Below, in pieces: positions 2,650-58,819 of a DNA stretch of 64,000 nucleotides. Every line of letters begins with the position of its first letter. Position 1 is the stretch's first letter. The stretch is from the IMG/VR virus record IMGVR_UViG_3300045988_159115; one strand, given 5' to 3'. The notes under the pieces are model-generated. The model searched no databases. It worked only from the letters and a program-made list of their open reading frames with translations, and was not told the DNA's origin. The stretch is from a virus. The translations under genes were made by a program, and so were the position numbers.

Positions 2650-3507
2650 ATGTCAAACGAACATGCGTGGAAATTTACCACTGAAGCCTCCAGTGGTAAG
2701 AAAAACTATGATATCGTCTGGGAAGGCTTACCCCACATCTACTTCTACGATGCAGATGGTTGCCATTGCGAGTGTGATGACAATGAGCCCGACGAGAAGC
2801 AGGTCGAGTTCGATCAAGAGATGCATCTGGATGGCAGATACAACCAGTACCAGCGTGACTACATCGTCAACACGTTCGAATTTCCCATGACGAAAGACCT
2901 GCGTGGTGAGAATGATGGTCATGCTATCAATATCAGCCTCCGGGTGTACTATCCCATGGTCCTTCCGAATATGATTCAGCCGAAAGACTTTGATGTCAAT
3001 CTGTGCCATATTCTGGAAGCAATCGAGCATTTCAATCATCTCGAAACCTGCGCGAGCATCAACGACATCAGCATTGATCTTGCTCCCACCCAGAAAGATG
3101 GCGTCTTCATGAAGACCACCTTCAATTTCAAACCTGCGGCTGGCGAATGCATGGCCGCAACGGATCGCTGGGAAAAATTCAGAAAAGACTCCGAGGAACG
3201 GCGGCTTGTAAGTGCGAAGGAGGCTATGACTGCTGCCATTTTCGGCGACGAAGTTTCCTGGAGACTCTATGAGAAGAGTTTCAAGCGGGACATCACTCGT
3301 ACTCGCATTCTGACTCAGTATCCTGAGTTGACTGAGTGGTTCACCGATATGGAACGGGACTGCACAAAGAAGTGGTCTCTTTTTGCGGAGAATAAGGATA
3401 CGGAAGGAAAAATCCCTATCATGACTCCGAAAACTCAGAGCGTTCTTGATGAGATTCAGAAGACTCCCGAGCCCACTTATGGTACCGGCCCCTCGAAGAA
3501 AAACTAA
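2650..3507 (+). CDS. hypothetical protein
   Basis: 285-aa ORF; GAAAGGAAAA SD. Confidence 0.7.
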   Translation: MSNEHAWKFTTEASSGKKNYDIVWEGLPHIYFYDADGCHCECDDNEPDEKQVEFDQEMHLDGRYNQYQRDYIVNTFEFPMTKDLRGENDGHAINISLRVYYPMVLPNMIQPKDFDVNLCHILEAIEHFNHLETCASINDISIDLAPTQKDGVFMKTTFNFKPAAGECMAATDRWEKFRKDSEERRLVSAKEAMTAAIFGDEVSWRLYEKSFKRDITRTRILTQYPELTEWFTDMERDCTKKWSLFAENKDTEGKIPIMTPKTQSVLDEIQKTPEPTYGTGPSKKN

Positions 3508-3570
3508 CCCTATGGCAGGGCAGTCCGTGTGGATTGTCCTGCTTCTTTTCTTATAAGGAGGAGAAAGATT

Positions 3571-3927
3571 ATGGCATTCTTTAATGCAATGGCTGATCAG
3601 TTCGAAGAGATCACGGTTTGTGGAAAGCCTGCGTTGTTCACCAGCATCCGTCTTGATAGGAATACTATCCCGGATTGTCTGTATGCCTACGACGTCCGGC
3701 ATGATGATGACTGTGAGGGTATCCCTTGTGAGATCGCACCCTATGTGCTTGTCAACCACTGGGGAACCATCATCCTTGCAGAGCCTCTGGAACTGCCGGA
3801 CGATGGTCGGCGGTACATCGACGAGGAAGACGACTGGAACTACTCCCCGTTTGATGGCGCCGAGAAAAATCAAAAGCCGTGCACCACAATAGAAGAATTC
3901 ATGAAGACCTATGTGAAGCAGAAATAA
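3571..3927 (+). CDS. hypothetical protein; possibly an LPD28-like domain as found in polyvalent proteins of conjugative elements and phages
   Basis: ATG at 3571 preceded by AAGGAGGAG. The sequence ...CGKPALFTSIRLDRNTIPDCLYAYDVRHDDD...VNHWGTIIL resembles, from memory, the LPD28 pattern. Not verified. Confidence 0.55.
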   Translation: MAFFNAMADQFEEITVCGKPALFTSIRLDRNTIPDCLYAYDVRHDDDCEGIPCEIAPYVLVNHWGTIILAEPLELPDDGRRYIDEEDDWNYSPFDGAEKNQKPCTTIEEFMKTYVKQK

Positions 3928-3956
3928 CGGCATTTGATATAGGAGGTTAAAACCTG

Positions 3957-4550
3957 ATGAGAATCAAATTCTCTCAGGCAGTCTCCGGTAAAGTTCCTGC
4001 CAGTATCGGGATTGTGAGTGGATGTGATTATGCAAAACTCACAATTCTCGGTGATGGCAGTTTTATCAATTCGGATGGTTCCGAATGGTATGGTGAAAAA
4101 GTAACCCTCCCGAGAGGTATCTACCAAAAGGTATATCTCTCTAGGAAGGTTACTTCTTTTTCCATTAACGGTATCATTTCTGAGTTGGATTTATCAGGAC
4201 TGCCGATCGTTAATAATGTCTCGGAATTCTTTAGCTTAAGAGGACTGGCTCATTTGAATCTTCGGAATACTCCAACCTATGGAGATCTTTCCGAAGCAAA
4301 GAAATTGAGAGATTCTCTCACGTATCTGGATCTTGCTTTCACAAAAGTGGATGGTGATATCCATGATTTAAATCCACTAAAGAAGCTAAAGTTTCTAGAC
4401 ATAAGTGGTACCACAATTAAAGGAGATCGAGAAGAGCTCGTCGGCTTAAAAGATATTATCACTTTGCGGTTAAATGCAAACGTAGCCGATCATGATTTAG
4501 GGCTCAATGATAAAATAATGAGCTATATTAAACGCTCGTTGGAGGTGTAA
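3957..4550 (+). CDS. leucine-rich-repeat (LRR) protein
   Basis: 197 aa; successive LxxLxLxx(N/T) units (LDLSGLP, LAHLNLRNTP, LTYLDLAFTKV, LKFLDISGTTI, IITLRLNAN); AGGAGG SD. Confidence 0.65.
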   Translation: MRIKFSQAVSGKVPASIGIVSGCDYAKLTILGDGSFINSDGSEWYGEKVTLPRGIYQKVYLSRKVTSFSINGIISELDLSGLPIVNNVSEFFSLRGLAHLNLRNTPTYGDLSEAKKLRDSLTYLDLAFTKVDGDIHDLNPLKKLKFLDISGTTIKGDREELVGLKDIITLRLNANVADHDLGLNDKIMSYIKRSLEV

Positions 4551-5470: not shown

Positions 5471-6865
5471 ATGGATATAACAGATGCAAGAAATCAAACC
5501 TCGCACGAAGTTCAGCTGATGCTCCAGAACTATAAGAAGTGCTGCCTCGTAAAGCCTTGCAGTTTTGGTAAAACTTATATGGCAGCAGGAATTGCGTTGA
5601 TGTATCATGCGGTTGTTATCATCACGACTGCATCCGCATATCGCAATTCGATTCAGCCGAACTATCCCAATCTGGATGAGGACAAGCACGAGACGATCAA
5701 GTTCATGAGCTACTACTCTTTGGCAAGAGATCCGGAAAAGAGTCTCGGTGAGATCCATGACGCGGTGAAGAACCATACCGGAAACATGCTCGTCATCTTG
5801 GATGAAATCCATCGTGGTGGCGCGATTGGTGTTGCTGGTGCCATCTTAAAGCTGATGGAAACCTATCCGAGTGCTCATTATCTCGGTCTTACCGCAACGC
5901 CTTATCGAGCAGATGGATACGATGTCTTGAAGATGTTCTTTGACAATCATGTCATTGGAACGGAAGATGACGCTCCGATCACCGACTACTGCCCTGAGAG
6001 GCATCATTACGTCATAAGCCGCTTTAACTCAAAGCAGTTCATTGACGACTCTCCATGGAAAGAGCGCATCAATGGAAACGCGGCATCGTTCGATCACATC
6101 TATTCGAAGATTTCTCAGAAGTATTATTCTTCGAGTAATCTCGTTACCACTCTCCGTCGGTATAAAGATCTCTATCATCAGGAAAGCTACTTCAAGGTCA
6201 TTGTATTCTATCCGACGATTGAAAAGATGAAGGTGATGATCCCAAAACTCGCAAGTGCATTCGAGACTCTATATCCTGAGAGGAAGATTCGTGTCACTCA
6301 GTTCTATTACAAGAACTCTGCGAGAGTTGAGTCGTGCACGAGAGAGCCGAACACGATCGACATCATGGGCTCTATCAACATGCTTGGCATGAGCTATCAT
6401 GATGACGACGTGACTTGTGTGATCATGTTCCGGAAGACTCGTTCTAATAACGTCTATACTCAGGAGATTGGGCGAGTCATGAACTACACCTCGACGGATA
6501 AAAATACTTGCGTGTTTGACTTCGTTGAAAACTGCGATTCCACTCAGTATAAAGTTAGACGTCGTCATGACGTCGATCCAGAAACCACCTATGCTGGCGC
6601 TGTCGGTATCCAGGACGAACTCGAGAAGTTTACTGAGAAGATCGCAAAGCAGGTGACCGTTCACAATGAAGTTCTCGAAATCAAAAATGTCGTTCGTCTT
6701 CAGCAGGCTTTCTCCGATGCTAAGTATGCCAATATTCGCAGCGCAGTTGTCAATGCGTATTTGACAAAAGGAGCACCACTTGAATACTGCTGCAAGAGGT
6801 TGAATGTATCCGAGGAGTTATTCCTTGAATATATTGATCTCTATAAGAAAGCGGAAGTTGAATAA
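5471..6865 (+). CDS. SF2 (DEAD/DEAH-like) helicase/ATPase
   Basis: Walker A-like SFGKTYMAAG, DEIH box (VILDEIHRGG) and motif III-like GLTATPYR. Confidence 0.7.
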   Translation: MDITDARNQTSHEVQLMLQNYKKCCLVKPCSFGKTYMAAGIALMYHAVVIITTASAYRNSIQPNYPNLDEDKHETIKFMSYYSLARDPEKSLGEIHDAVKNHTGNMLVILDEIHRGGAIGVAGAILKLMETYPSAHYLGLTATPYRADGYDVLKMFFDNHVIGTEDDAPITDYCPERHHYVISRFNSKQFIDDSPWKERINGNAASFDHIYSKISQKYYSSSNLVTTLRRYKDLYHQESYFKVIVFYPTIEKMKVMIPKLASAFETLYPERKIRVTQFYYKNSARVESCTREPNTIDIMGSINMLGMSYHDDDVTCVIMFRKTRSNNVYTQEIGRVMNYTSTDKNTCVFDFVENCDSTQYKVRRRHDVDPETTYAGAVGIQDELEKFTEKIAKQVTVHNEVLEIKNVVRLQQAFSDAKYANIRSAVVNAYLTKGAPLEYCCKRLNVSEELFLEYIDLYKKAEVE

Positions 6866-7473: not shown

Positions 7474-10400
7474 TTAAGATTCGTAAATCTCTTTCAGTTT
7501 GCGTTTCAGTTCAACGATCACCTTATTGCCAAGAACGGTTATCAGAATTGAAGGAACCTGGCGTTTCAAGATTGAAGACGGTGGGATAAGGGAAGACACC
7601 TCTTCTTCAGGTCTGAATTCACTATAAGGCTCGTAGCCTTCAGGTATAATTTCACCAACGATACCCTTCAAAGCGGTGAAGTAGGCCACCTTGTCTCCTA
7701 CACCAAGGATATCACCGTGTTCGATATAGAATTCGATCAGTACGCTATCATCAACTTTCTGTCCTTTGATGACGCCGTAGATGTTCGGCTCGATCTTACC
7801 GGTGGTCTCATTGACAAGCAGGCCACACTTCACGATAGAAGAGTCCTCTTCAGCGTACTTGTCGAGGAATCCCTTTTTCTCTTTCACCGTCTTGTAGTAG
7901 TCGTTAACGACTTTACGAAGACTCGGACTCATCTCATCCAGTTCGACAGCTGAATAGATCTTGATCCCAACGATTGTACCGGCATACTTAGATCGAACGA
8001 CATTCTTACTTTCATTCTCCATGAGCTCTTTATTCTCATCAGAAAGAGTAGCAAGCAATTTATTCAGATCACTATCTTCGAATGATGTATCGTAGGAAAG
8101 CAGAGGATCGCCAATATGGACATGATCACCCACCTTACGCATATCATACACATTTGAGTTCTTACCAACAACTACTGATTTGCAGAAAGTCATATTGGCT
8201 TGTGCATCTCCAGCAAGTTTACGGGTAATAACGGTACAGTCGTTGTATGTGTTATAAGAAGAGATAATAGCAACTTTTTCCAGAACACCGACATTCATAC
8301 GAAGGCCATTGAGTTTATCTTCCTTGAAGAAGTCTTTGTGCCAAGCAAGGGCAGCATCTTTTTTGAAAGAATCACCCACTTTATACTTGGTCACAAGTTC
8401 ATTGGAAAGATAGAAACCACCGCCGCCGTTCTTTACGATATTCGGTGCAAGATTGATTGCTTGATGTTTACCGCTCTTATATTCAACCATGAGGATCTTG
8501 CTCTTCGGATCATAGTCAATGACTTTGCCATCCTCGGCAGCATTGACAACGAAATCCGTAGAAAGATCGAAGCGGATTGCTTCATCAGATCCATTTGAAA
8601 TAAGAGCAGGAGATGCATTCTGCACAGGAATAACATGCTTTGACTGCTTCACAGCCATTGCAATACGAACAGAGTCATCTCGAGTATTACCAAGAGGATA
8701 AAGAAGTTCAGCAGGAGAGAACAGGTTCACATCCTTCAGATCTTCTCGTTCGTTTTCTTTGATATCAACGTATCCACGTGCAGATGTGATATTCGGCTCC
8801 ATTGTAAGAGTACGATTAATACCACAGTTACCATCAGGAGAAGTGCTCATACCGATAACACCGATCATAGACGGGTCATAAGAACGCTTTTCCTCGGAAT
8901 ATGCACGATCAACGTTGACACCACGATATCCCTTTGCAGTGATATTACGATCTTTCTCAAGTTCAACGACAGGATTCAGTGTAGAATAATCTTCTACTGT
9001 CTGGAGACCCATCAATTCCTTGATAACGCAGTTTCTAGGAAGTGTCAGTTTCTTTTTACCGCCGCTATTCTTATAATCGAGATAAGCATTGGAAATCTGA
9101 TAATACAGAATAGCGGGAATGACTTCAGAAGAACGGACACGAGCAATACGCTGGCTAGACTCAAAGGTATAGCTATCGTCAACGAGTAAGCTATTTGCAT
9201 AAATGCAAAGCTCGATGAGATCAGTAGGAAGACCAATGTCACGAAGAATCTCTTCTGTGATAGGATCAATCATGAACTCATAATAGTTACCGATAGCGGA
9301 CATGATAGCCACTTTACCGTAGACTTTCTTGAAATAATCCACGTATGCTTCCGCACTATTATACTCATTGAGATCATGAGACTCTGTATCCAGAACCTTC
9401 ATGCCATTCATCAAGAGAGCTGTTGCCATATCCGCGTCATACAGCATATAGCAATCCTTAAACCGAATGACACCCTGACTTGCTTTTACCTGCTTCGGAT
9501 AAGACTTACTGAATTCATACTTCAGATTCATCTTCTTGAAGACTGATGTAATTCCTTCCCAATAGAGCATGTAGACAATTAGAGGCATTGTCTGACTCAT
9601 CATCGTCGCAGTTGAATACATGACCTTCTTGGTATTACGAGTCTTCAGATACTCATTTCGAATATCAGGAGGAAGCTGATCGACAAGAATATCGCAGATG
9701 GATTCACCATCACTTGCGGACTGAGTTTCGGAGTTAATCCAAATCTCTTTATTCTTATCTCTCCAACCAATAAAGATCATACTGCCATTATTGGTTTTAG
9801 GAGCTTCCAGATCATGATCTTCCACATACTTCTGTGCGTCTTCCTGACTAAAGAAAATCGTACAGGTAGGAGTTTCGAATTTTCGAATAACCTTGGAGAA
9901 CTCATCGTATTCCAAAGTAGTCAAATACTGCTTATTGGTGACATATACGTTACCAACTGTGAAATGCTTCATAGCATTCTCATTAGACGTAATGAGTTTC
10001 ATGAGACGCTCAACAGCAGAAATAGATTTTGCACCGGTACGACGGACGAAAATCTTATTGTAGTTGGAAACGATCTGTACTGTATCAGGGCCAGTCTTTA
10101 CGACAGGATATAAGAAATTCTGCTTATTGATCAGCTTCTTATTACCGCCGAGATACAGGAATTTATCGTCAAGGAACTTCGGAATATCAACCGTAACAAC
10201 ATGACGCTGATGCTTCTCATCTTCCAGAGTAACTTTCATCGTCATCTTGTAGTTTAACTCATCCGACGTATCTTCACTCTTGATATCAATGACATAGAAA
10301 GGCATACCCTTCTTATTCAGACAAGTAAAGTCGTTCATCAAATCAGCAGGCATAACATTTTCGATGTAATCCTTATTGATATTTGAGAACTTCACTGTCT

Positions 10401-11832
10401 TCATATTATCATTGATCGTATGAAGAGATCCAGAAATGTCTTTTTTCGGGATAGGACGCTTTGCAGCATTCATCGCTTTCACATCTTGGAAAGTCATATT
10501 CTCAAGAGTAATGGATTCCTGCTTCTTACGCATTTGAGCGTCACGTGCTGTACTAATAGGTTTTGACGGAACCGTGGTAGCTTGCATTACCTTATACATG
10601 CTTTCCACAAGTTCCTTATCATTATCAAGATCCATCTCAGACTTTGCCTTGATATAATCAACGGCAGCTTTACTTTCAGTAGGATCTTTTCCATTTGATA
10701 CAGCTTCGATCTCTTTTGTAGTCTCTTCGACTTTCTGATTGATCTTCTTATTGATCGTATCCTTAGCAATCTCAACTTCTGCTTTTCGAGCAATATCATT
10801 TCCGATATAAGAAGTCTTAGACCCTTGAGTATTCGTGATAGGCTTCGCTACCACAACTTTCTTTGAAGAAGTATTCTTCACCGTCACCGGGTTCTTTTTT
10901 GCCGCGGGCTCGTTCGATACTTTAATCGTCGAAGCTGCTTCAGGAGGCAACTCTTTTTGAACAACCGGCGTGGTATTATTACCAGTAAGATTATATCTAG
11001 TAGAAAGAGTAGCCTTAATAACATCTCTTTGCTCTTCATCTTTGACAGCCTTCGTATCTGATACTTCATCCCAGCGAGTAGACTTCTTAAATACACGATT
11101 CAGAGATGTTCTGAACTGTGATGCATTAACTTTCGCCATTTTACTAGGATTTACACGTAAGATATAAGAATCTGAATAAAAATAGAAATCAATATCCAGT
11201 TTCTTAAATGAAGGAACCTCATTCAGAATAGAATAATAAAATTTGAAAAGAATATTATTGATATTCTGAGTGAAATTCGTTCCAAAGTTATCAAAGAGGT
11301 CAACATCAACGAGGACAAACTTTTGCGGATACTGGGAGCACTGTTCTCCATTGATGATGCTGTAAAGGTAAGCCCAGAATAAGCTTACTTTTTTCTTTGG
11401 CTGCTGATTAATGGTACACTGGTCAAATACTTTCAGATACATTGAGAGATCAAAAAAAGTATTATAGTCGGGAGTCTTATTCAGAAGCATAGGAGGATGC
11501 TCATGAAGAGAACTACTATGAATTCTATCATAAAGATCCTTTTTTCCAGCTGCATCTCTGACATTGTAAGTTCGCCCACCAATTGTACCATGATATCGGA
11601 TGTTGTGGTACAGATAACGGTATTTACCATCTGCTGAGCAATTCTTCGTATTGGTTGCTACATGGATTACTTCAGCAGGCGTGGTAGCCATAATGAATGC
11701 AAGATTTCCATGCCCGGGTTGAAGTTTCTTCATCTTTCCAGGATGCTCTGGATCAGGAATGACAACTTCTTTCGGCAGATATGCTTTTCGAGCAACTGCA
11801 TTCATATATGGGAGAGACGTAATATATACCAT
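7474..11832 (-). CDS. phage multisubunit RNA polymerase beta-like subunit with a non-homologous N-terminal ~470 aa
   Basis: NPVVELEKDRNITAKGYRGVNVDRAYSEEKRSYDPSMIGVIGMSTSPDGNCGINRTL parallels RpoB ...ALGPGGL..ERAGFEVRDVH.sHYGR.CPIETPEG.NIGL. MAVKQSKHVIPV parallels MGANMQRQAVP. GDKVAYFTALKGIVGEIIPEGYEP parallels GDKMAGRHGNKGV.S.I.P.EDMP. Confidence 0.85.
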   Translation of the reverse strand: MVYITSLPYMNAVARKAYLPKEVVIPDPEHPGKMKKLQPGHGNLAFIMATTPAEVIHVATNTKNCSADGKYRYLYHNIRYHGTIGGRTYNVRDAAGKKDLYDRIHSSSLHEHPPMLLNKTPDYNTFFDLSMYLKVFDQCTINQQPKKKVSLFWAYLYSIINGEQCSQYPQKFVLVDVDLFDNFGTNFTQNINNILFKFYYSILNEVPSFKKLDIDFYFYSDSYILRVNPSKMAKVNASQFRTSLNRVFKKSTRWDEVSDTKAVKDEEQRDVIKATLSTRYNLTGNNTTPVVQKELPPEAASTIKVSNEPAAKKNPVTVKNTSSKKVVVAKPITNTQGSKTSYIGNDIARKAEVEIAKDTINKKINQKVEETTKEIEAVSNGKDPTESKAAVDYIKAKSEMDLDNDKELVESMYKVMQATTVPSKPISTARDAQMRKKQESITLENMTFQDVKAMNAAKRPIPKKDISGSLHTINDNMKTVKFSNINKDYIENVMPADLMNDFTCLNKKGMPFYVIDIKSEDTSDELNYKMTMKVTLEDEKHQRHVVTVDIPKFLDDKFLYLGGNKKLINKQNFLYPVVKTGPDTVQIVSNYNKIFVRRTGAKSISAVERLMKLITSNENAMKHFTVGNVYVTNKQYLTTLEYDEFSKVIRKFETPTCTIFFSQEDAQKYVEDHDLEAPKTNNGSMIFIGWRDKNKEIWINSETQSASDGESICDILVDQLPPDIRNEYLKTRNTKKVMYSTATMMSQTMPLIVYMLYWEGITSVFKKMNLKYEFSKSYPKQVKASQGVIRFKDCYMLYDADMATALLMNGMKVLDTESHDLNEYNSAEAYVDYFKKVYGKVAIMSAIGNYYEFMIDPITEEILRDIGLPTDLIELCIYANSLLVDDSYTFESSQRIARVRSSEVIPAILYYQISNAYLDYKNSGGKKKLTLPRNCVIKELMGLQTVEDYSTLNPVVELEKDRNITAKGYRGVNVDRAYSEEKRSYDPSMIGVIGMSTSPDGNCGINRTLTMEPNITSARGYVDIKENEREDLKDVNLFSPAELLYPLGNTRDDSVRIAMAVKQSKHVIPVQNASPALISNGSDEAIRFDLSTDFVVNAAEDGKVIDYDPKSKILMVEYKSGKHQAINLAPNIVKNGGGGFYLSNELVTKYKVGDSFKKDAALAWHKDFFKEDKLNGLRMNVGVLEKVAIISSYNTYNDCTVITRKLAGDAQANMTFCKSVVVGKNSNVYDMRKVGDHVHIGDPLLSYDTSFEDSDLNKLLATLSDENKELMENESKNVVRSKYAGTIVGIKIYSAVELDEMSPSLRKVVNDYYKTVKEKKGFLDKYAEEDSSIVKCGLLVNETTGKIEPNIYGVIKGQKVDDSVLIEFYIEHGDILGVGDKVAYFTALKGIVGEIIPEGYEPYSEFRPEEEVSSLIPPSSILKRQVPSILITVLGNKVIVELKRKLKEIYES

Positions 11833-12722: not shown

Positions 12723-13400
12723 TCAAAGAGATTTCTGGTCAATCTCGACGATTACGTTTTTGTTAATGTAATCAACGATGTTCTGAATCTCAGCTGCATT
12801 CATCGAATTATGATTTCCACGAACGTAGCACATCACTTCATTATTGATGTAGTTATAATGGGTTTTCTTCATATCAATGATTCTCTGGTTGCTACTTCCA
12901 CAGAACTTCAAATGAAAGTCTTTCTTATCTTCTTCATACTGACCATCAACCAAATGATCTACGAAATACAGCATGCTCATAATCTGAGCTTCTTTATCAT
13001 CCGTAGTATATTTGGATCTCTGATTCAGAGATTTAAACTCCAGAAGTGCTTTAAGAATGATATCAGTAAGAGAATACCCAGTATAAAGCCAGATATCCAT
13101 TTTCTTATAGATAAGATCGGCATCTTCTTTAATATGAAGAACGAGATTTGTCAGATCGTAGATATTACACCATTCCAGAGGTTCTCCACCCAGAATGGAG
13201 AATCTATGGATATAAGGTCTATCAACGAGGGAACGGATTTTTGTTTCCGTTTCTGTGGTGTATTCTTTACCACCATTGAAATCCCATGTGACTTGATTAA
13301 AGCAATTCTTACAATGGAAGTGGCATCCTTGTGTGAAGAGGGAAACTCCAACGCCGTAGCCATTGCTAACATCCATTTCTCGAATAGATGCATATCTCAT
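12723..13400 (-). CDS. nrdG: anaerobic ribonucleotide reductase activating protein (radical SAM)
   Basis: N-terminal ...VSNGYGVGVSLFTQGCHFHCKNCFN contains the CxxxCxxC cluster; lies immediately downstream of nrdD; its SD GAGGAGAAAGAG lies inside nrdD exon 2. Confidence 0.85.
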   Translation of the reverse strand: MRYASIREMDVSNGYGVGVSLFTQGCHFHCKNCFNQVTWDFNGGKEYTTETETKIRSLVDRPYIHRFSILGGEPLEWCNIYDLTNLVLHIKEDADLIYKKMDIWLYTGYSLTDIILKALLEFKSLNQRSKYTTDDKEAQIMSMLYFVDHLVDGQYEEDKKDFHLKFCGSSNQRIIDMKKTHYNYINNEVMCYVRGNHNSMNAAEIQNIVDYINKNVIVEIDQKSL

Positions 13401-13404: not shown

Positions 13405-13514
13405 TCACTCTTTCTCCTCTACTTCTTCACCATCAGCAGCAATATCTGTCAGATGCACATAACGGTTTCTAATCTCATCGGTACGACCCTGAGACCAGAA
13501 GTGAGTTCCAATAT
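13405..13514 (-). CDS. nrdD: nrdD exon 2 (C-terminal tail following the glycyl-radical Gly)
   Basis: Encodes (Y)IGTHFWSQGRTDEIRNRYVHLTDIAADGEEVEEKE*. Joined to 13826 it gives RRTCG-Y-IGT, which parallels the canonical RRxCGYLG...GK..E...R..H. Exon lengths are 3205 + 110 = 3315 nt, which is in frame. Confidence 0.85.
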
Positions 13515-13825
13515 CCTTTATACCCTCGGTTTCCCGATATTTAAGTACGGGAGTAGACTATACCATACTTGCTTAGTGACTTCACTAAGTAGCGCCCGTA
13601 TTATAGTCGTTGAACGTCCTTCCCTAAGTGGAATAAATCCATACGAGTATTTCTACTCGCAGAAGTTTCGATGCGATGATTATCCAATCTCTAAGTCTTT
13701 TTACCATACCTGATTCTGTTAAAATCAGCCATATAGTTGTCGCCATATCTATACTTGGTAACCTAGAGCTCTAAGGAACTTCCCGCAGTTTAACAGGTTT
13801 AACGTGGACTATATTGAATAATTCA
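13515..13825 (-). ncRNA. group I self-splicing intron in nrdD (311 nt, no ORF)
   Basis: The 5' exon ends GUGGAU. The internal guide sequence CAAUAU-A-GUCCAC (13816-13804) can form P1 with the exon (U.G at the splice site) and P10 with the 3' exon AUAUUG. The intron ends in G. There is a P7-like pair GACUA (13608-13604) / UAGUC (13560-13556). Confidence 0.85.
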
Positions 13826-16800
13826 ATCCACAGGTGCGTCGAGCGACGCTCATCTTATGCTGATCACGATTGCCGCAATTCGGGCATTCCCAAACCAACT
13901 TGCCACCATCATCAACTACTTTGATTTCTCCATCGTAGCCGCAGTTCATGCAATAGTCAGACTTGATATTGAGCTCTGCATACATGATATTCTCATAGAT
14001 ACACTGCATAACTTCAAGAACTGCAGGAATATTATGAGTCAAATCAGAGCATTCAATATAACTGATAGCACCGCCCGGAGAAAGCTTCTGGAATTCAGCT
14101 TCCTGAATGAGCTTATCGAACGGATTAATCTTTTCAAAGACGGCAGTGTGATAGCTATTAGTGATATAATTACGATCTTTGCCATCAAGCTTAATAAAAA
14201 CGTCATCCCCAAAACGTTTCTTAAGGCAGCGAGCGAACTTGTAAGTGGTATTCTCAATCGGGGTACCATACAGAGAATAATCAATATGCTCTGCTGTCTT
14301 CCACTGATTGCACTTATCATTCAGAGCCTGCATGACCTTAAGGCCAAATTCTCTACCAACGCCTTTATCCATATGAGAATGGCCAGTCATATACTTGACA
14401 CACTCATACAGACCCGCATAGCCAAGCGAGATAGTAGAGTATCCATTAAACATGATATCGCCGATCTTAGCATCCATAGGAAGTCGTGCGAATGCACCAT
14501 GACGCCAAAGAATAGGAGCAACATTAACAGATGTATCCTTGATACGATCAATACGTGCACGCAATGCTCGATGGCAAAGCTCAGTACGCTCTTCAAAGAG
14601 CTGCCAGAATTTATCGTAGTCTCCACCAGAAGAGAAAGCCAGATCAGGGAGAGAAATGGTTACGACGCCACAATTAAATCTTCCATAATACTTTCCCTTG
14701 CCGGTTTTCGGATCTTTATATGGAGTAAGGAAACTGCGGCAGTTATGGCTGTAAATACCAGAAATAGTGAAATGCTCACTTCCAGTTGTTACGTCATAAG
14801 TATCTTCTTTCCGTTCAAGCATATGAGATTCTACGATATGGCACTGAAGTTTATTATTTAAACTAGCAAGATTCATTTCGTGCTTGATATAGTGATTCCG
14901 CTTTTTCTCAGACACGAGATTTTTGACAATTTCATCTGTAGCAATAAAGCAAACTTGATAACGAATGGTATCATACCGGCCAGTGCCTTTATAATGATTT
15001 TGATACATCGTAGCAGGGATGCCCAGCGACTGCGCCAGCATCATTTGCTGAATAGCAAGCTCTTTATTGGTCGATCCAATTTGGACAGCAGTGAATTTCC
15101 CATTCGAATTATTAAGGTATCCATCAGCATCAATCATGCCGCAAAGGAAACCAATGCGAGCAGATCTATTCGATGTAAAGATATCGGACGGAATATGACG
15201 GTTTAACTTAATAATTCCGCCGAATTCTTTAATCATTATATCAGCAAATTTAGGAATGGCAATTCCATCATCGGTAGCCACAGAAACGATATCTTTGTAA
15301 ATTCCTTTTCTTTCACGATTCTGATTTACTACTTTCGTGGTAATTCCATAGAATCGCTTCAGCCGCTCTTGGAGAGCTCCGATAATATCATCTTCACCCT
15401 CATTTGCTAACGAAACCGCCAGCTTTTTAATGTAAGACGAATCGCAAATCAGAATGCCAAGAAGCCAAGCCAACTCAGGATCATAATCATTATTTTCATC
15501 ACTGATATGAGATTTGATATCAACCTGAATCATGTCGTCTTCTTTTAAATCTTTTGCAAAAACGACTCCACGGTTTTCCGTTTCAAACGGATGATCCGGT
15601 GTGACATCGAGGCATCTTCCGTTATTGAACTTGATTCTCATAACGTCGCACTTCGAATTTCGAATGATTCGATAACACAGAGTCCAACCGTTCACATGAT
15701 CATAGATCATCACGTCTTTCAAATCCATGTACCAATCATTTTCACGACCGGGCTGAAGCTTTACTTCAAAGAAGGGCATGAGGCGCCACCACATTCGGCC
15801 AATTCCTTCAACGTAAGTATTCTTCATGAATTTATAGGTTACTACTTCATCACCGACCGCACATCCCATGCATGGATACACGTCGCCCTTCAGCTGTTTC
15901 ATTACTTTTGCTGAAATATAGTCAGGAACCATGCGTTTGGCCGTGCATTGTGCAGCTAAAACAGTGGTACTCCAGTACTTTGTGCCAGGTTTAATATTGT
16001 CTTCATCGAGGACATAGATGAGCTTCGGGAATGCAGGAGTAATCCATGCACCCTGCTCATTCTTCATGCCCTGAATACGCTGGCGGAGGAATTCTTCGAT
16101 GATCATGACAAGTTCGTCACGGTATTCATCAGTTTCATCAATATACATGAAGACGGTGAGGAACGGAGCCTGTCCATTGGTTGTAGACATAGAGTTCACC
16201 TGATAGATAAAAGTCTGGCAACCATCTTCGACTTCTTTACGAGTATCAAGCTCAGCAAACTTAGCTGCTTTTCGTTCATCAAAGCCCCAGCTAAGATATT
16301 TCTTCAGATAGATATTATAGGAGTCTCTCACGAACGGTGCGAGATGTGTCAGAGTGATAGATATGCCACCGTACTGGGAAGAAGTGACTGCCGTAATGAT
16401 CTGAGTAGAGATCGTGGCGGCAGTAATAAAACGATGCGGTTTGTCGATTTTGGTACCATTGATAACAGTACCATTCTGAAGCATATCATCAAGATTGCAG
16501 AGTGAGCAGTTGGTAAGAACACTCTGTGCATAATAATCCGCATCATGGAAATGAATAATTCCGGCGTCATGTGCATCCACAACTTCCTTGGGAAGCAGAA
16601 TACGCCGGGTAACATCCTTTGAAGTAATACCAGCGATATAATCACGCTGGACAGAAACGATTTCGGGGTCCTTATTGGAATTCTCTTCGTTCACTTCTTC
16701 ATTCGTGTGATTGAGAAGTTCCATAATTGCATTATCCGTGGTATTGTGAGAATCACGGACAAGAGATCTCTTAAAACGATACTCCGTATAGGCCTTCGCA

Positions 16801-17030
16801 ACATCCTTACGGTCAGTACCCATGAGATCATAAATGACGAGATCCTGAATCTCCTCTACAGACTTATCTTCAGGAATAGCAGCGATCTCATCTGCGATAT
16901 TATTCGCAATTTTGGTGGAAGAATCGGATAGTGAACCATCGACCTCAATAAATGCCCGCTGAATTGCGGATACAATTTTTGATCTGTCGAACTCCACTAC
17001 CCGGTTATCACGTTTCTTCACAGATTTCAT
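13826..17030 (-). CDS. nrdD: nrdD exon 1: anaerobic ribonucleoside-triphosphate reductase (contains an intein)
   Basis: N-terminal ATP-cone (KRDNRVVEFDRSKIVSAIQRAF); YPCMG|...|CRSFL loop; C-terminal Zn ribbon CMNCG...CPNCG; ends RRTCG at the splice site. The annotated ORF instead runs on to a stop at 13809 inside the intron. Confidence 0.9.
14742..15863 (-). mobile_element. intein with LAGLIDADG homing-endonuclease domain (374 aa) inside NrdD
   Basis: Starts CAVGDEVV after YPCMG; TxxH block (VTPDHPF); two dodecapeptide motifs (WLLGILICDSS, FLCGMIDADGY); ends IYSHN|C, followed by the extein RSFL. Confidence 0.85.
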
Positions 17031-17471: not shown

Positions 17472-17593
17472 TAGTGCCCTGGTAACACTTTGATAGCTTT
17501 TAGACCCTCCAAAATAAATAGAGTGTGTCATTAATCAAAGCGTTTCCCTAGACTTTTGCGACCCCATTGAAATTCTTAGGAGGGATTCTCAGT

Positions 17594-19369
17594 ATGGCAA
17601 GCAAGGCAACAGCAGAGAAAAAAGAACGCAAAGTTGAATATGTCAAAGTCAACGGCGTTGAGATGCGGAAAATAAAGATTAAGATGAATATGGAAGTTTT
17701 AAATTCCATTATTTCTCTTATCTATACCCCAAGTGCATTAAGAACTCGAAAAGTTCTTGATAATACATATAAGCTGTTCAATATGATTGATTTCAGGGTC
17801 TATGAAAAAAGTGATGAGTTGATGGCGCGCGTAAAACTCATTCACTATACCCTTGAAGCAAGATTTGAACGTGGAATCAGTGGACTCACAATGATCAAGC
17901 AATACGTTGCTGATCAGAACCAAGAGAACGATAATAATCCGCTGATTCCAGAAATTTTGGACAATATTCCAAAAAATATGGAGCCGCTTGATTATGAGGA
18001 TACAAAGTATCTGATTAAAAGTATTCAAGACCGTGTCCGTTATGGCTATATCGTTAATTTAAAGGAAGAGTATGATAGAATTATTGGCAGTATGACTTTT
18101 GAGAATGCAGATAGCTCTGCTTATCAAAAGAATTGCGAGCTTCTCTATGAAGTCGCTAGTAATATTGTCAATATGAAGCGCAAGACTGAAGCTCTTGATT
18201 CGAGCAATCAGACTTTCTCGCTGGATCAGGATACATTCAATAATGTCATCATTGATTCAGTGAGAAAACTTCAGGATAAGAACCGAGTGTTTAAAACTGG
18301 CATTCGGTTCTTAAATAATATCCTTGCACCAGGTTACCAGAGCAAGCGTCTTTATTGCTACTTGGCATTGCCTGGTGGTGGTAAAAGTTTGATGCTTCTG
18401 AAATCCGCTTTGGATATTAAGAAGTATAACCCGGATATTAAGCCAAAAAATCCTGGTAAGATTCCCTGTGTATTGCTGATTACGATGGAGAACGATATTG
18501 ATGAGACCGTGGAACGTATCTTCAATATGAGAGTTACCAATCGTGATATCCGTAATTACAAACCGCAGGAAGTTGCAGACCTGCTTCGTAATGAAGGTGG
18601 ACTTACATTGACCGATGAGAATAATATTGATATCGTCATTAAGTACTACCCGAACCGAAGCATTGATACAAATGATCTTCGCACGATTATCCAAGATGAA
18701 TTCGACGATGGTCGTGAGGTCATTACTTTAATCCTGGACTACTTAAAGAGAATTAGACCTGCTGAAAAAGCAGATAGTGAAAAAGAAGAGCTCAAGAATA
18801 TTACCAATGAGCTAAAGACCTTAGCAAAGGAACTTGATATTGCTGTCATTACTGCACAGCAGTTGAATCGTGCAGCAGCTTCTGTCGTTGATGCTGCTCT
18901 CCAATGCAATAAACAGGATGTTACAAAACTGGTTGGTCGTGATGGTATTGCTGGCGCTTGGGAAATCCAAGAGAACTGTGATATGACCATCATTATCAAT
19001 AAAGAAATGAAAGCAGATTCTGGTCGTAATTATATGACCTTTAAGATGCTGAAGCGTCGTTACCGTTGTAATAGTGAAGAAAAAGATCCTCGTTACGGAA
19101 TCCCGGTCCGTGATATTGATTACTTCTCACATCCGTATGATGATAATGACAACGCACTGATTGACGACATCAATATGCCTCAGGCAATCAGTGTTATTTC
19201 GCTCATGTCGTCGTTTGACGATATGCAAAGTGCAGGCGGTGCACGAACTGTCATTGATAGACCCAAAGTAAAATCAAAAAAGAAAAATTCTGAAATGGGT
19301 CAGCTCGATGATGGTAGTGGATTTGACCTTTTCAATGAAGATTCTAATGGAGACATTGGAGACTTCTAA
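17594..19369 (+). CDS. DnaB-family replicative DNA helicase
   Basis: Walker A LALPGGGKSLMLL; Walker B-like VITLILDYL; ITAQQLNRAA (DnaB H3-like motif); start ATG 17594 after TAGGAGGG. Confidence 0.75.
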   Translation: MASKATAEKKERKVEYVKVNGVEMRKIKIKMNMEVLNSIISLIYTPSALRTRKVLDNTYKLFNMIDFRVYEKSDELMARVKLIHYTLEARFERGISGLTMIKQYVADQNQENDNNPLIPEILDNIPKNMEPLDYEDTKYLIKSIQDRVRYGYIVNLKEEYDRIIGSMTFENADSSAYQKNCELLYEVASNIVNMKRKTEALDSSNQTFSLDQDTFNNVIIDSVRKLQDKNRVFKTGIRFLNNILAPGYQSKRLYCYLALPGGGKSLMLLKSALDIKKYNPDIKPKNPGKIPCVLLITMENDIDETVERIFNMRVTNRDIRNYKPQEVADLLRNEGGLTLTDENNIDIVIKYYPNRSIDTNDLRTIIQDEFDDGREVITLILDYLKRIRPAEKADSEKEELKNITNELKTLAKELDIAVITAQQLNRAAASVVDAALQCNKQDVTKLVGRDGIAGAWEIQENCDMTIIINKEMKADSGRNYMTFKMLKRRYRCNSEEKDPRYGIPVRDIDYFSHPYDDNDNALIDDINMPQAISVISLMSSFDDMQSAGGARTVIDRPKVKSKKKNSEMGQLDDGSGFDLFNEDSNGDIGDF

Positions 19370-22219: not shown

Positions 22220-23767
22220 TTATGATGCAGATTTCGGAGCATCCTTTGTCAATACATAGAATGTCTGAATAGCTTCAAGGTCAATGACACGGCAATTCGA
22301 ACCGTTCGGATTCAAAGCAAAGTTCTTGCTATTGATAACCTTCTCACACTCAGCATTGGCTTCTTGAGTCCAGAAAATCTTCGAAGTAATCTGGTCACCA
22401 TCGTAGTCGCCGTCAAGGCCAGCCAGATATGCATCTGAGAACTTGGTTGTATCAATAAAGTTGTTTGCAACCTCTTCTCTTGGCATATTCAGATCAATGA
22501 CAGGATACCATTTATACACGGTATCGTTTACCTTCATAGGAACGGTATGAAGTGTGGAAGAAACATTGATTTTCGCCACAAACATACCAAAACTATTCAG
22601 AACCGGATAGCGTGTAATCATACAATGCTTATCCTTTGTCACTTCAACGCATGCCATATAAAGAAGATCACACCATGTCATATAACGATGGACAAGGGAT
22701 TTATCAGCAGGCTGATTTACCATGATGCCGTCGAAATACAGAGGAAGATCCTTTCCTTCTACAGTAGGAACTGTAATCAAGTCAAATCGACTGGAAGGAT
22801 CTTTTGCAAACTGATTCAGGCGCTTCTTGATATATTCATCATTGAACGTAGCTTCCGGATCTTTCAGAGTATAATTCGAGTTTACACCAGTCTTATTATT
22901 CTGAACTTCCAAAATTTCACGCTCAATGAAGTTTCTCACCCATGCAACAACGAAAGGATACGCTTCAACGATGACCTGGGACATCGGAAGAGCGGCATGT
23001 CTAAAATCGACAATGTTGTCTTTCGGATCATCACAGTTGTAAAGAGGAGCAGAGATAACGGTACGGACACAATAGTCAACGTTTTTACCAAGCAGGTATT
23101 TACGAAGCATACCGTTTTTCTTATCCAGACTATTCTTAAAATAGTCATAGACTTCCACAAGAGTATTCTGAATAGATGCATTCGTTGAATGGAAGGAGAA
23201 ATCAAACATATCAGCATCTTGTAGAAGCGCACTCATACGAATCAGTCGAGCATAAAGTGTATTCAGCTCAGATGATTCACCGCCACCGCCTTTATTGGAC
23301 TTAATGTCTCGATAAAAAGCAGGGATGACGATTGCTTTTGTCGTAAAGATTTCATTCTTCTTCGTTTTACCAATAAGGTCACAACGCTCTGAAGACATGC
23401 CACCGTTGCCTTCCCATTTTAACTTACTCCAATTATTATAGATAAACTCGATTCCGGTATTACCATTCGGATCTTTTACGAGCTTTCCATCTTTAATGGA
23501 GAAAGTCTGACTACCATCAACGATCTGATCAATGTTACGAAATACTCGTTTCAAGATCTTGTAGATATGAGGATGGAAGAAATGCCCGTGAAGGTCAATG
23601 TATGCAAATGTCTCTTTACGACTCTTAACAGAGACGCCAAAAATTTCATTTGAAATCAATCCATTTGGATTCGGAATACCGCCACGCTCAAACAAAATAG
23701 GAGACGTGACTGGTTGTAAATTATTGATCTTCACAAATTCATCGACGTCAAATAGATCAATTTTCAT
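22220..23767 (-). CDS. phage RNA polymerase beta-prime-like subunit, N-terminal half (catalytic DxDGD)
   Basis: AGLDGDYDGDQIT parallels the universal NADFDGDQM Mg-binding motif; FAYIDLHGHFFHPHIYKIL parallels MGHIELAAPVAHIWF. Confidence 0.8.
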   Translation of the reverse strand: MKIDLFDVDEFVKINNLQPVTSPILFERGGIPNPNGLISNEIFGVSVKSRKETFAYIDLHGHFFHPHIYKILKRVFRNIDQIVDGSQTFSIKDGKLVKDPNGNTGIEFIYNNWSKLKWEGNGGMSSERCDLIGKTKKNEIFTTKAIVIPAFYRDIKSNKGGGGESSELNTLYARLIRMSALLQDADMFDFSFHSTNASIQNTLVEVYDYFKNSLDKKNGMLRKYLLGKNVDYCVRTVISAPLYNCDDPKDNIVDFRHAALPMSQVIVEAYPFVVAWVRNFIEREILEVQNNKTGVNSNYTLKDPEATFNDEYIKKRLNQFAKDPSSRFDLITVPTVEGKDLPLYFDGIMVNQPADKSLVHRYMTWCDLLYMACVEVTKDKHCMITRYPVLNSFGMFVAKINVSSTLHTVPMKVNDTVYKWYPVIDLNMPREEVANNFIDTTKFSDAYLAGLDGDYDGDQITSKIFWTQEANAECEKVINSKNFALNPNGSNCRVIDLEAIQTFYVLTKDAPKSAS

Positions 23768-43291: not shown

Positions 43292-44647
43292 TTAGTGACT
43301 GATCATGCGGGTGAGCTCTCTGCCGATCTTATTGGAATTCATCGTAACTTCACGTTCCAGTGATTCGAGGGCATACGTCTCAAATGTATTATTCCCATCA
43401 TAGAGAATATCAACAGTACGATTGCCGTCATCGACAATGATGAATGTCATAAGGAAGAGAGACCGCATCATCGGAACTGCAAACTTCGGATTCCGAAGAT
43501 CATAGCCGGTCTTATTCTTGATCAGGTCTGCTTCATAACCGTTAATGACAACGGTTGCCTGAGGAACCAGCTGAGTACGACTCATCGTAGCCATCTGAGC
43601 CTTTGCAGTAGAACGCATACGCTTCAGAGTATTCCACCAAGGAGATGCACCCATTGAACGGTTTGCAACATCCAGTTTCACATCGTTGATATGGAGCAGA
43701 AGATCCTTAACCAGAGACTTCTCGCCGGTCGTCCAACGAATAAAGTTAAAGAGAACGCCACGATTCTGCATGGTATTCGTAAGATTCACAATCATTTCAT
43801 CCGAATGGACAGAATGGAGAATCACCTTAATACCAACGACGAAATCGACGAACTGGACAAACTCCTCCTCGTCATTGATTGCAGAAAGACGAACCTGCAT
43901 CATGTAAGGCTGCATGTCGTTCTGCTTCTTCACGTCGTTATCCTTCAGAAGCTGAGGCACGGTCTTATTGAAACTCTGCTTATACTTTTCCTTATCCAGA
44001 TCATTTGCAGCACGATAGCGATCGAACTGCATGTCTGTGATCTTCTTATTCATATAATCAGAATCGACTTCTGCCTCACGAGCATAGAACGGATTATTAC
44101 CGACATTCGGGATCGGAGAATAATCCAGATCCTTCAGAGCAGAACTCATCTGAGCCTTATGGGATTCAAAAATAGCCTTCGGGAACTTTTCAGAGAAATT
44201 GAAAGCAAGAATCTGACCGGTTGACTCATTGATATATGCCTTAGTAGAGCCATCATAGATACGAGCAAAAAGAGCATCGTAGTCCGGATCCGGTTCCACG
44301 CAGTTTTCAAGATAGGTATCAATTGCGGTAGACTCGAGCTTCACGTTCTTATGAAAACGCTGAATATACTGATTCACATCCTTATAGTCAGCGATATTCA
44401 TGATATTTTGGGTAGAAAGATAGGTCTGCACAAAAGACGCATACACTCGTTCCATAGTCTTTGCAAGTGTGCTGGCCATATCAATGGGAATAGAATCACT
44501 AATCAGGCAAGGAAACTGCATTGTCGTGTCCATCGCGCCACGAGCAAAACTCTTACGAACCATCTGATTACTCACATGGGTAACATCTGCCCCGACACGG
44601 CCGGCATCACGAACAGCAGCAATGATATCACTAATCGGTGATGACAT
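43292..44647 (-). CDS. hypothetical (structural module) protein
   Basis: About 451 aa; ATG at 44647 after GAAAGGACAGG. Confidence 0.7.
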   Translation of the reverse strand: MSSPISDIIAAVRDAGRVGADVTHVSNQMVRKSFARGAMDTTMQFPCLISDSIPIDMASTLAKTMERVYASFVQTYLSTQNIMNIADYKDVNQYIQRFHKNVKLESTAIDTYLENCVEPDPDYDALFARIYDGSTKAYINESTGQILAFNFSEKFPKAIFESHKAQMSSALKDLDYSPIPNVGNNPFYAREAEVDSDYMNKKITDMQFDRYRAANDLDKEKYKQSFNKTVPQLLKDNDVKKQNDMQPYMMQVRLSAINDEEEFVQFVDFVVGIKVILHSVHSDEMIVNLTNTMQNRGVLFNFIRWTTGEKSLVKDLLLHINDVKLDVANRSMGASPWWNTLKRMRSTAKAQMATMSRTQLVPQATVVINGYEADLIKNKTGYDLRNPKFAVPMMRSLFLMTFIIVDDGNRTVDILYDGNNTFETYALESLEREVTMNSNKIGRELTRMISH

Positions 44648-44714
44648 ACATACCACCTGTCCTTTCTCTCATGAATTTAGTTTTAGCCTTAGATTCCTAT
44701 TGGAAAACTTACCT

Positions 44715-44729
44715 AATTGTTTTTAGGTG
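44715..44729 (-). promoter_or_regulatory. class I-like motif CACCTAAAAACAATT
   Basis: Between terminator 44750-44805 and gene 44647. Confidence 0.45.
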
Positions 44730-44749
44730 CTTTTTGGCATGGGATTCCA

Positions 44750-44805
44750 ATAAAAAATAAAAAAATACAGATGATAATCCATGCATCCGACCACCATCTG
44801 TATTT
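44750..44805 (-). terminator. rho-independent terminator after 44819..45052
   Basis: AAATACAGATG / CATCTGTATTT followed on the - strand by TTTTTTATTTTTT. Confidence 0.75.
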
Positions 44806-44818
44806 TTCTTACTGAAGA

Positions 44819-45052
44819 TCAGTCATCATAATTCCAGATGCTTTTCTTCTTTTTCTTGTGCTTCTTTTTCTTCTTCTTTCCTTTCAGATATTTCTCTCTG
44901 TCCTTCCCAGAAAGAAACTCTCCGCTGAGTGCATCAACGACGTTCCTGGTGGTGCCATCCGTATATGTACCGAGGACAACTTTTTGTACCTTCTTATCCC
45001 CGGCAATATCCATGACTGCACTTCCAAGAGCTTTCAGAACTTTGGGATCCAT
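44819..45052 (-). CDS. small protein with poly-Lys tail
   Basis: 77 aa; C-terminus KGKKKKKKHKKKKKS; AAGAGGTG SD. Confidence 0.6.
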   Translation of the reverse strand: MDPKVLKALGSAVMDIAGDKKVQKVVLGTYTDGTTRNVVDALSGEFLSGKDREKYLKGKKKKKKHKKKKKSIWNYDD

Positions 45053-45100
45053 TATTTTTCACCTCTTTAAAATTGATAGAAAGATATATCTCAATCTTCC

Positions 45101-45126
45101 CTCATTAATATAATATATAAATAAAA
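45101..45126 (-). promoter_or_regulatory. AT-rich class II box (- strand TATATATTATATTAAT)
   Basis: Upstream of the ATG at 45052 and adjacent to a terminator. Confidence 0.3.
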
Positions 45127-45181
45127 ATATTGAAACCCTCATATCTCAGGTGTAAACTTCACCAAGATATGAGGGTTTCAA
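45121..45181 (-). terminator. rho-independent terminator after 45228..45485
   Basis: 17-bp stem TTGAAACCCTCATATCT / AGATATGAGGGTTTCAA followed on the - strand by TATTTTTATTT. Confidence 0.8.
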
Positions 45182-45227
45182 TTATAAAATAGAGAGGATC
45201 CTTACCAACGAAAGCAAATGAATCTTA

Positions 45228-45485
45228 TCAAGATGTTGCGACCAAAGCAGTCAGAGTTGCCGCTGCCAGAGTCAGACCAGCACCGTAAGTGATAGCGCAC
45301 AGAGGCGCGCCAACCTTCGTTTCGGAGTCCGTGACAGTGGGCAGATACTCAGTCAGAGTATTCATACTCTCGTCGCATACAACATCATCCGCAGTATTTG
45401 TGTAATACACCGGATGCACATTCTTCTGCTTGTCGATTTTGTTCATGAGGGCATGGATGCCATCAGTAGATTGTGTAAGGAGCAT
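45228..45485 (-). CDS. small protein with hydrophobic C-terminus
   Basis: 85 aa; C-terminus GAPLCAITYGAGLTLAAATLTALVATS. Confidence 0.6.
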   Translation of the reverse strand: MLLTQSTDGIHALMNKIDKQKNVHPVYYTNTADDVVCDESMNTLTEYLPTVTDSETKVGAPLCAITYGAGLTLAAATLTALVATS

Positions 45486-45668
45486 ATGAGTAATACCATC
45501 CTTTCATTACGATATTGAGTAATCTAATGCCGAAGCATCTTTAAGATTTGTCCTGAGATATTACTCCTTAGTTACAAGAACTTCTCCATATTCCAATTAC
45601 CAGGCTTTCCATGCACACTGGGATTACCATTATCTGTCCATATAATGATAGCGCCAGTGCAATAAGAT

Positions 45669-45845
45669 TTAACTTTTTTGGTCCGCCTGTACCGATGATC
45701 CTTCAGGAATATCTTTAGTAGCTCCATTACTTTCAGAGCCAAAGATAAGGACGCCCTTGATATTATATGCTCTTTTCAGAGGATTTCCTTTTGAATCAAA
45801 TGCCGATTTAAGTAAGGATGAGCTCGATACATCATAGATAGCCAT
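45669..45845 (-). CDS. small ORF (58 aa) missed by the ORF track; possibly continues in the +1 frame to 45572
   Basis: AAGGGAGGG SD 8 nt upstream of the ATG at 45845; the ORF stops just after an A6 run; the +1 frame encodes a further 33 protein-like codons (...IWTDNGNPSVHGKPGNW...). Confidence 0.45.
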   Translation of the reverse strand: MAIYDVSSSSLLKSAFDSKGNPLKRAYNIKGVLIFGSESNGATKDIPEGSSVQADQKS

Positions 45846-45858
45846 ATATTGCCCTCCC

Positions 45859-58449: not shown

Positions 58450-58529
58450 AAATTCACTTCAGTCCTTTCAATGATTTCTCATGGGTTATGTGTCTGTAAC
58501 CTAACCCATTCTTTTCTAATGAATACGTA

Positions 58530-58741: not shown

Positions 58742-58819
58742 GCTAGATTAGCTCAGTTGGCAGAGCGATTGATTTGTAATCAATAGGTTCCTAGGGTTCG
58801 AGCCCCTAATCTAGCTCCA
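58742..58819 (+). tRNA. tRNA-Thr (anticodon UGU), CCA encoded
   Basis: Acceptor GCTAGAT/ATCTAGC; D arm GCTC-AGTTGGCA-GAGC; anticodon stem ATTGA/TCAAT with loop TTTGTAA; T arm TAGGG-TTCGAGC-CCCTA; 7-nt variable region. Confidence 0.75.

Follow-up and report, generated by a model that had tools for sequence, protein, structure and literature searches.

The nrdD gene of an uncultured gut jumbo phage, contained in the 64,000-nt stretch of IMG/VR record IMGVR_UViG_3300045988_159115 analyzed here (hereafter, the window), is interrupted inside its glycyl-radical motif by 311 nt (13825..13515, minus strand) which very probably represent a functional, ORF-less group I intron spliced at 13826/13514. 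This reading is based on the sequence of the gene, on the predicted fold of the intervening RNA and on comparison with intron-bearing and intron-less relatives. Catalysis and its efficiency in vivo are predicted by analogy with characterised group I introns.

Structure of the interrupted nrdD gene

In agreement with the preliminary description, whose coordinates and sequence could be reproduced, the nrdD ORF was found to be broken inside the glycyl-radical motif. This ORF (17030..13809, minus strand) comprises 1073 codons and ends in ...VARRTCGLNYSI (that is, ...NCGNRDQHKMSVARRTCG-LNYSI) followed by a stop located five codons past RRTCG (UAG 13811-13809). The missing part of the protein, the conserved NrdD tail YIGTHFWSQGRTDEIRNRYVHL, was found 311 nt downstream of the break in a different frame, as had also been claimed (13514..13405, encoding (Y)IGTHFWSQGRTDEIRNRYVHLTDIAADGEEVEEKE). 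Exon 2 reads ATATTGGAACTCAC... from position 13514, and when T13826 is prefixed it yields YIGTHFWSQGRTDEIRNRYVHLTDIAADGEEVEEKE, ending at the stop codon TGA 13407-13405. The 3' end of exon 1 is ...CGC ACC UGU GGA U, which codes for R-T-C-G and contributes one further base, the first of the Tyr codon; joining 13826 to 13514 gives GGA-TAT-ATT within a 3315-nt CDS, stop codon counted (spliced junction sequence ...CCUGUGGAU/AUAUUGGAAC), so that both the proposed junction and the proposed CDS length held. Since moving the junction by one base in either direction results in G-D-I or G-F-I, as read from the sequence, 13826/13514 is the sole junction restoring G-Y-I.

In Pfam searches, the spliced product matched NRDD (9.5e-167) and ATP-cone, with a Gly_radical match extending across the junction. 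Its last 125 residues aligned without a break through RRTCG/YIG to the structures 9d3x (E 4e-12) and 1h78 (T4, E 4e-11) of the PDB, and the spliced product appears to be a full NrdD. The nrdG gene follows the tail directly, again as first described. The coordinates of all features are given in Table 1.

Table 1. Features of the nrdD region, the intron and the remainder of the window. Positions refer to the window, except for the last row.
Feature	Position	Strand	Description
nrdD exon 1	13826..17030	-	From the ORF list; ATP-cone, most of the NrdD core and in-frame 374-aa intein
LAGLIDADG intein, 374 aa	14742..15863	-	Pfam Intein_splicing, LAGLIDADG_3, Hom_end
Intron	13515..13825	-	311 nt, ORF-less; RF00028, covariation, precise absence in L004, L005 and L049
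nrdD exon 2	13405..13514	-	Remaining 2 bases of the Tyr codon followed by IGTHFWSQGRTDEIRNRYVHLTDIAADGEEVEEKE and stop; aligned to the C-termini of 9d3x and 1h78
nrdG (activase)	12723..13400	-	Pfam Fer4_12 (2.8e-36), Radical_SAM; immediately downstream of nrdD
P1, exon strand	13832-13826	-	UGUGGAU; U13826 at the 5' splice site; pairing also seen in minimum-energy fold
P1, guide strand	13809-13803	-	GUCCACG; G13809·U13826 wobble; covaries with exon in L015, L244 and L253
P10, guide strand	13818-13811	-	UUCAAUAU; 8 bp with exon 2 AUAUUGGA (13514-13507)
P3	13797-13793 with 13599-13595	-	CCUGU with ACGGG; both-side changes in 4/5 pairs, 11 relatives
P4-P5 domain	13672..13787	-	Contains P4, P5, P5a, P5b and P5c
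P4	13787-13784 with 13675-13672	-	UGCG with CGCA; invariant
P5	13777-13775 with 13685-13683	-	UCC with GGA; 1 pair with both-side change
P5a	13768-13763 with 13694-13689	-	2 pairs with both-side change
P5b	13754-13749 with 13736-13731	-	5 pairs with both-side change
P5c	13728-13724 with 13714-13710	-	4 pairs with both-side change
P6	13665-13661 with 13623-13619	-	CUUCU with GGAAG; both-side changes in 3/5 pairs; two small hairpins enclosed
P7	13608-13603 with 13561-13556	-	GACUAU with AUAGUC; invariant in 11/11 sequences
P8	13588-13583 with 13578-13573	-	UUAGUG with CACUAA; loop AAGU; enclosed by P7
P9	13536-13534 with 13529-13527	-	CGG with CCG; GAAA loop; invariant
3' module	13515..13555	-	CUACUCCCGUACUUAAAUAU, CGG-GAAA-CCG hairpin (13536-13527), AGGGUAUAAAGG, terminal G 13515
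RNA polymerase beta-type ORFs	7474..11832, 22220..23767, 56344..58449	-	PHROG phage multisubunit RNAP; E 2.7e-153, 2.4e-87 and 4.5e-48, respectively
tRNA genes (two)	58742..58816, 59181..59251	+	61.5 and 43.5 bits, respectively; second in E-value search only
DnaB-like helicase, divergent	17567..19369	+	PF20307, PF03796; flanks the nrdDG region
ResIII/Helicase_C protein	5471..6865	+	Flanks the nrdDG region
Intron of Enterocloster phage CB473P3 (L001, OP172757.1)	3434..4368		935 nt; positions in that record

A second element is present in the same gene. The 374-aa intein encoded within the 3315-nt CDS, which was absent from the preliminary description, is inserted at PCMG/CAVGDE...IYSHN/CRSFL, directly before the Cys aligned with C290 of T4 NrdD, the thiyl-radical cysteine. 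Intein and intron assort independently among near-identical relatives: both were found in the window and in the relatives L006, L011 and L015, the intein only in L049 and L005, the intron only in L040, and neither in L004. The inteins located at the same site in L011 and L015 are divergent (27-41% identity).

The three multisubunit RNA polymerase beta-type ORFs indicate that the window derives from an AR9/phiKZ-like jumbo phage, and the closest IMG/VR contigs are 250-262 kb in length. The nearest NrdD relatives were those of Enterocloster bolteae phages among cultured phages, and those of Clostridia and Lachnospiraceae among cellular sequences. The host group of this jumbo phage is probably gut Firmicutes.

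Secondary structure and covariation of the intron

The conserved core of group I introns (P3, P4, P6, P7 and P8) could be located in its entirety within the 311 nt, with P7 enclosing the 3' strand of P3 as well as P8, and P3 and P7 forming a pseudoknot. The U at the 5' splice site is engaged in a U·G wobble with the guide in a P1 of 7 bp, the internal guide being CAAUAU-A-GUCCAC at 13816..13804 (minus strand), and the intron ends in G13515, with an 8-bp P10 formed with the start of exon 2. The hallmarks originally listed for this intron (U·G in P1, P10, guide at 13816-13804, terminal G and a GACUA/UAGUC pair) were thereby all recovered, and P7 was located. The folding z-score of the intron RNA with respect to shuffled sequences was -3.0. 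A three-helix P5a/b/c extension is present in the intron, and P2 is absent from the fold. P7 and the 3' strand of P3 are only 3 nt apart (AAU 13602-13600), which leaves no P7.1/P7.2 in the intron. Helices P7.1/P7.2 at this place characterise subgroup IA2, which includes the T4 td, nrdB and nrdD introns as well as those of SPO1 and Twort; the intron of the window differs from this subgroup in lacking them, P2 being likewise missing.

The covariance-model check suggested in the preliminary description gave a significant match to RF00028 (Intron_gpI) with 30.9 bits (local E 5.9e-6; 5.4e-4 over the entire window), a score below the curated gathering score of 50 bits for this model. The intron surfaced in the E-value search alone, and only a tRNA was retrieved from the whole window at Rfam gathering thresholds. 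The P1/P2 region of RF00028 aligned poorly to the intron. Five relatives reached only 29-39 bits, and RF00028 thus under-scores the whole intron lineage.

Covariation was evaluated on an alignment (A1) of 11 distinct ORF-less relatives, some of them from other genes (for example, L279) and four of them near-identical rows. The structure scored was a manual P3-P9 structure derived from these same sequences, which constitute a small set; on A1, 98.9% of its positions were paired, both-side changes were observed in 19 of the 43 pairs, and the observed covariation score was reached by none of 500 shuffles. When pairing partners were slid by 1-3 columns as a control, 25-44% were paired and at most 4 pairs showed both-side changes. 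P4, P7 and P9 never varied in A1 and are therefore uninformative for or against the structure. The P8 and outer P9 pairings were excluded from the count, as their MAFFT alignment was unreliable across lineages, and so was the 3' strand of P4 past 4 bp, where pairing was inconsistent.

The helices formed with the exons, P1 and P10, also covary with exon sequence. For P1, exon and guide strands were GUGGAU and GUCCAC in the window, GUGGGU and GCCCAC in L015, GUGGGU and GCUCAC in L244, and UGCGGGU and GCCCGCA in L253. For P10, exon AUAUUG and guide CAAUAU in the window corresponded to exon ACAUUG and guide CAAUGU in L040, where an A-to-G change in the guide compensates a U-to-C change in the exon.

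With these pairings, splicing would start with the formation of P1 between the guide GUCCACG and UGUGGAU at the end of the exon, which puts the U·G pair at the 5' splice site, and free guanosine bound in P7 would attack after U13826. The terminal G13515 would subsequently move into this guanosine site, with the beginning of exon 2 kept in P10 by UUCAAUAU, and the freed exon 1 would attack after G13515, joining GGA-U to AU-AUU. Ligation would restore R-T-C-G-Y-I-G, the glycyl-radical loop. Ribosomes translating unspliced RNA would terminate at UAG 13811-13809, five codons beyond the start of the intron.

Empty sites and intron variants among relatives

Contigs of 145-262 kb with NrdD tails 93-98% identical to that of the window were found in IMG/VR. 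In L004, L005 and L049 (NrdD tail 94-96% identical), the gene is contiguous across the motif (TGC GGT/GGC TAT/TAC ...) and exactly the 311 nt are absent, the spliced exons of the window giving ungapped alignments to these empty sites over 300 + 110 nt. ORF-less introns of 310 and 312 nt, 96.5% identical to that of the window and differing from it at positions that preserve the core pairings, were detected in L006 and L011, respectively. The introns of L015 and L040 are longer (816 and 831 nt, respectively), with an HNH_3 ORF of approximately 158 aa filling the P8 loop. At the same position of nrdD, introns with a different P5 extension were found in L244, L263 and L270, and a further peripheral variant in L253. 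No homing endonuclease gene is contained in the intron of the window, where the P8 loop is reduced to AAGU, and in its absence this copy is not expected to be mobile today.

Exon sequences flanking the insertion site were compared among these relatives. L040 and L005, with and without the intron, respectively, share a common distal exon-2 background, and within approximately 29 nt of the junction L040 carries the allele of the window instead of that of L005. L004 shows no differences from the window between +12 and +102, but has nine synonymous-type ones between -23 and +11. Approximately 25 nt of exon on each side travel with the intron, independently of the wider exon background, a flank pattern that would be expected from homing with co-conversion. 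Alleles with and without the intron in close relatives, together with such co-converted flanks, are the attributes of a mobile intron. The copy in the window is probably a derivative of a mobile intron that lost its endonuclease gene, having arrived with these exon segments.

At least 120 IMG/VR stretches contain the 3' module, and 80 contain the J6/7-P7 motif. Within the window, a search for further copies of the intron family with the 3' module and the J6/7-P7 motif (up to 3 mismatches) retrieved only the nrdD copy, and a scan of IMG/VR with the exact P1-P3-P4 pattern returned only four contigs that had already been found. Introns of the same family were also observed in other phage genes (L279 448..707, as well as L218, L226, L230 and L261); that of L279 is located in a ...CTDAD (Toprim-like) motif, with its guide matched to that exon. 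None of these copies reaches the gathering threshold of Rfam, so that scans run in the standard way systematically overlook the lineage. Among cellular sequences, the 80 best NrdD relatives (from Clostridia, Lachnospiraceae and Collinsella) were all contiguous across the motif, and no copy of the intron was found in them.

Integrity and expression of exon 2

Substitutions in exon 2, considered in the spliced frame, fell on the third codon position in 13 of 18 cases with respect to L040 and in 19 of 26 with respect to L015, and the encoded peptide was nearly constant. Exon 2 is under purifying selection when read in this frame. This pattern bears on the possibility that nrdD is a decaying gene, inactivated by a dead, non-splicing intron, an alternative which we consider highly improbable. 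The loss of the endonuclease gene from this copy and a score under the Rfam threshold would both be compatible with decay; yet the low RF00028 score reflects the model rather than decay, since the whole family scores 29-39 bits. Moreover, both exons and nrdG are intact, exon substitutions among relatives are mostly synonymous, including those of exon 2 in the spliced frame, and all core pairings, the U·G wobble, the terminal G and P10 are preserved, the differences found in L006 and L011 sparing the core.

Still less probable is the existence of a gene in pieces, in which a truncated NrdD would assemble non-covalently with a separate C-terminal peptide of approximately 35 aa. Functional split ribonucleotide reductases have a precedent in Aeromonas phage Aeh1, where nrdA is split by mobE (PMC3653736), and a purine run (GAGGG / AAAGGA) is located just upstream of exon 2. 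A separate protein made from 13405-13514 with its own start, an outcome that the preliminary description had regarded as contrary to splicing, was nevertheless rejected, as the tail frame contains no ATG, GTG or TTG from the stop at 13560-13558 to the GTG at 13458, a codon internal to the conserved YVHL. In addition, the break occurs right after the radical-bearing Gly, whose neighbour is replaced by LNYSI, and a covarying ribozyme fold with P1 and P10 tracking the exons would be needless in a mere spacer. Recoding, i.e., ribosome bypass or frameshifting over the gap without RNA splicing in the manner of T4 gene 60, would be compatible with the different frame of exon 2 and with the stop codon soon after the break, but its probability is negligible, given that the 311-nt gap is six times the 50-nt hopping gap of gene 60, that the RNA of the gap is a recognisable group I ribozyme and that no matching take-off/landing codons are evident in the sequence.

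Implications of the probable splicing of nrdD

Taking the interruption as a spliced group I intron, gene callers and Rfam scans at gathering thresholds will report this nrdD as truncated and missing its radical site, and given that the lineage scores only 29-39 bits, metabolic inferences and phage phylogenies based on ribonucleotide reductases (RNR) will miscount such genes. Insertion into the most highly conserved catalytic motifs is a known rule for homing elements, and the nrdD gene of the window fits it, with an intron after the glycyl-radical Gly codon and an intein before the Cys aligned with T4 C290. The relatives provide a compact series in which the gain of an intron, the loss of its endonuclease and co-conversion can be studied in uncultured jumbo phages of the gut; it comprises empty sites, copies without an ORF, copies with an endonuclease gene and a lineage whose site is shifted by one base. 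The value of the case lies in the correction of the annotation and in this natural series of intron states.

Homing may have recurred at the G-Y codon pair of the NrdD glycyl-radical motif, a possible hotspot occupied by at least four intron lineages of one superfamily (the types of the window, L244, L253 and the Enterocloster phages described below), a proposal towards which we lean slightly. If so, both radical-bearing residues of NrdD would be separately occupied by selfish elements, and the locus would represent a natural system for homing-endonuclease competition and hand-over at one site.

Comparison with known introns

When the region was compared with 50,697 phage records by megablast, only a 50-nt match to the 3' module in Enterococcus phage terL was retrieved, with no close relative, and no whole-intron match was found in the phage collection. 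In blastn comparisons, the intron core resembled introns of AR9/PBS1 (in RNA polymerase genes), SPO1-like Bacillus phages, Staphylococcus phages (Twort/K-like), Listeria phages and Enterococcus phages. Identity to the intron of the window was 74-76% over P3-P5c for AR9, PBS1, SIOphi and others, 74-76% over P7-P9 for the Staphylococcus phage introns, and approximately 92% over the 50-nt 3' module, inside terL, for the Enterococcus phages EH93P1 and relatives. These introns of Gram-positive phages and that of the window have in common the core, a compact size and placement in conserved motifs of replication and nucleotide-metabolism genes, whereas the host gene and site differ, P1 and P10 of the window being fitted to nrdD RTCG/Y.

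The nrdD (sunY) intron of T4 is also a group I intron in the nrdD gene of a phage, and is mobile by endonuclease-mediated homing (I-TevII, GIY-YIG). It is located within codons ~172-257 of 605 (CDS 43535..46385, I-TevII 44836..45612), far from Gly580, while that of the window follows the Gly aligned with T4 Gly580; the endonucleases differ as well, being GIY-YIG in T4 and HNH in the relatives of the window's intron. No Escherichia or T4-like phages appeared in the organism tally of blastn matches to the intron. The nrdD gene of Lactococcus phage 949 shares with that of the window the combination of a non-coding group I intron with an intein in one gene, but its break occurs after approximately residue 417 of nrdD-a (CDS 57257..58510, then 58825..61074) and not in the C-terminal glycyl-radical motif. 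Identity of the intron site with that of T4 or of phage 949 was rejected on these coordinates.

Interrupted phage nrdD genes are already well documented, and the window is an ordinary case of a known selfish element, involving no new mechanism. In a 2013 survey, no RNR gene of phages was split more frequently than nrdD, through introns as well as inteins (PMC3653736), and the curators of RNRdb reported more than 100 group I introns in RNR genes (PMC2795772). More recently, nrdD was found to be fragmented in 95 of 104 genomes of Jug gut jumbo phages in a 2026 study, where RNA read mapping supported splicing of split genes, although not for every nrdD gap (PMC12880540). The Jug phages (360-402 kb, with Bacteroides or Phocaeicola as predicted hosts) are comparable to the window in the fragmentation of nrdD by introns and inteins, which is reported to be common (PMC3653736; PMC12880540). 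No description of a published intron at the G/Y codon pair was found, the intron and RNR catalogues lying outside the search.

Unannotated introns also interrupt nrdD within this G-Y codon pair in the Enterocloster bolteae phages CB473P3, CB473P1 and CB457P1 and in the gut contig MT835556; sister phages CB457P2 and PMBT24 are intron-less. A skipping-rope RNA (RF02924) was also observed in CB473P3 (L001, 5374..5453, minus strand; 68.3 bits, above the gathering score), approximately 1 kb downstream of nrdD, and no RF02924 counterpart was reported in the window. The Enterocloster-phage introns have a P7 (GACUAUAAU, AUAGUC) and a 3' module homologous to those of the window, with approximately 80% identity over the last 50 nt. 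They differ in splicing at GGU^UAU, one base upstream of GGAU^AU in the window, in their length of 935 nt, in their P3 and P4 sequences and in a 227-aa HNH ORF that is located before P7 and not in P8. In the GenBank record of CB473P3, nrdD ends at the glycyl-radical motif and the intron HNH ORF is annotated as 'hypothetical protein', which illustrates in a cultured phage the expectation, already voiced for the window, that automated annotation would call such an nrdD truncated.
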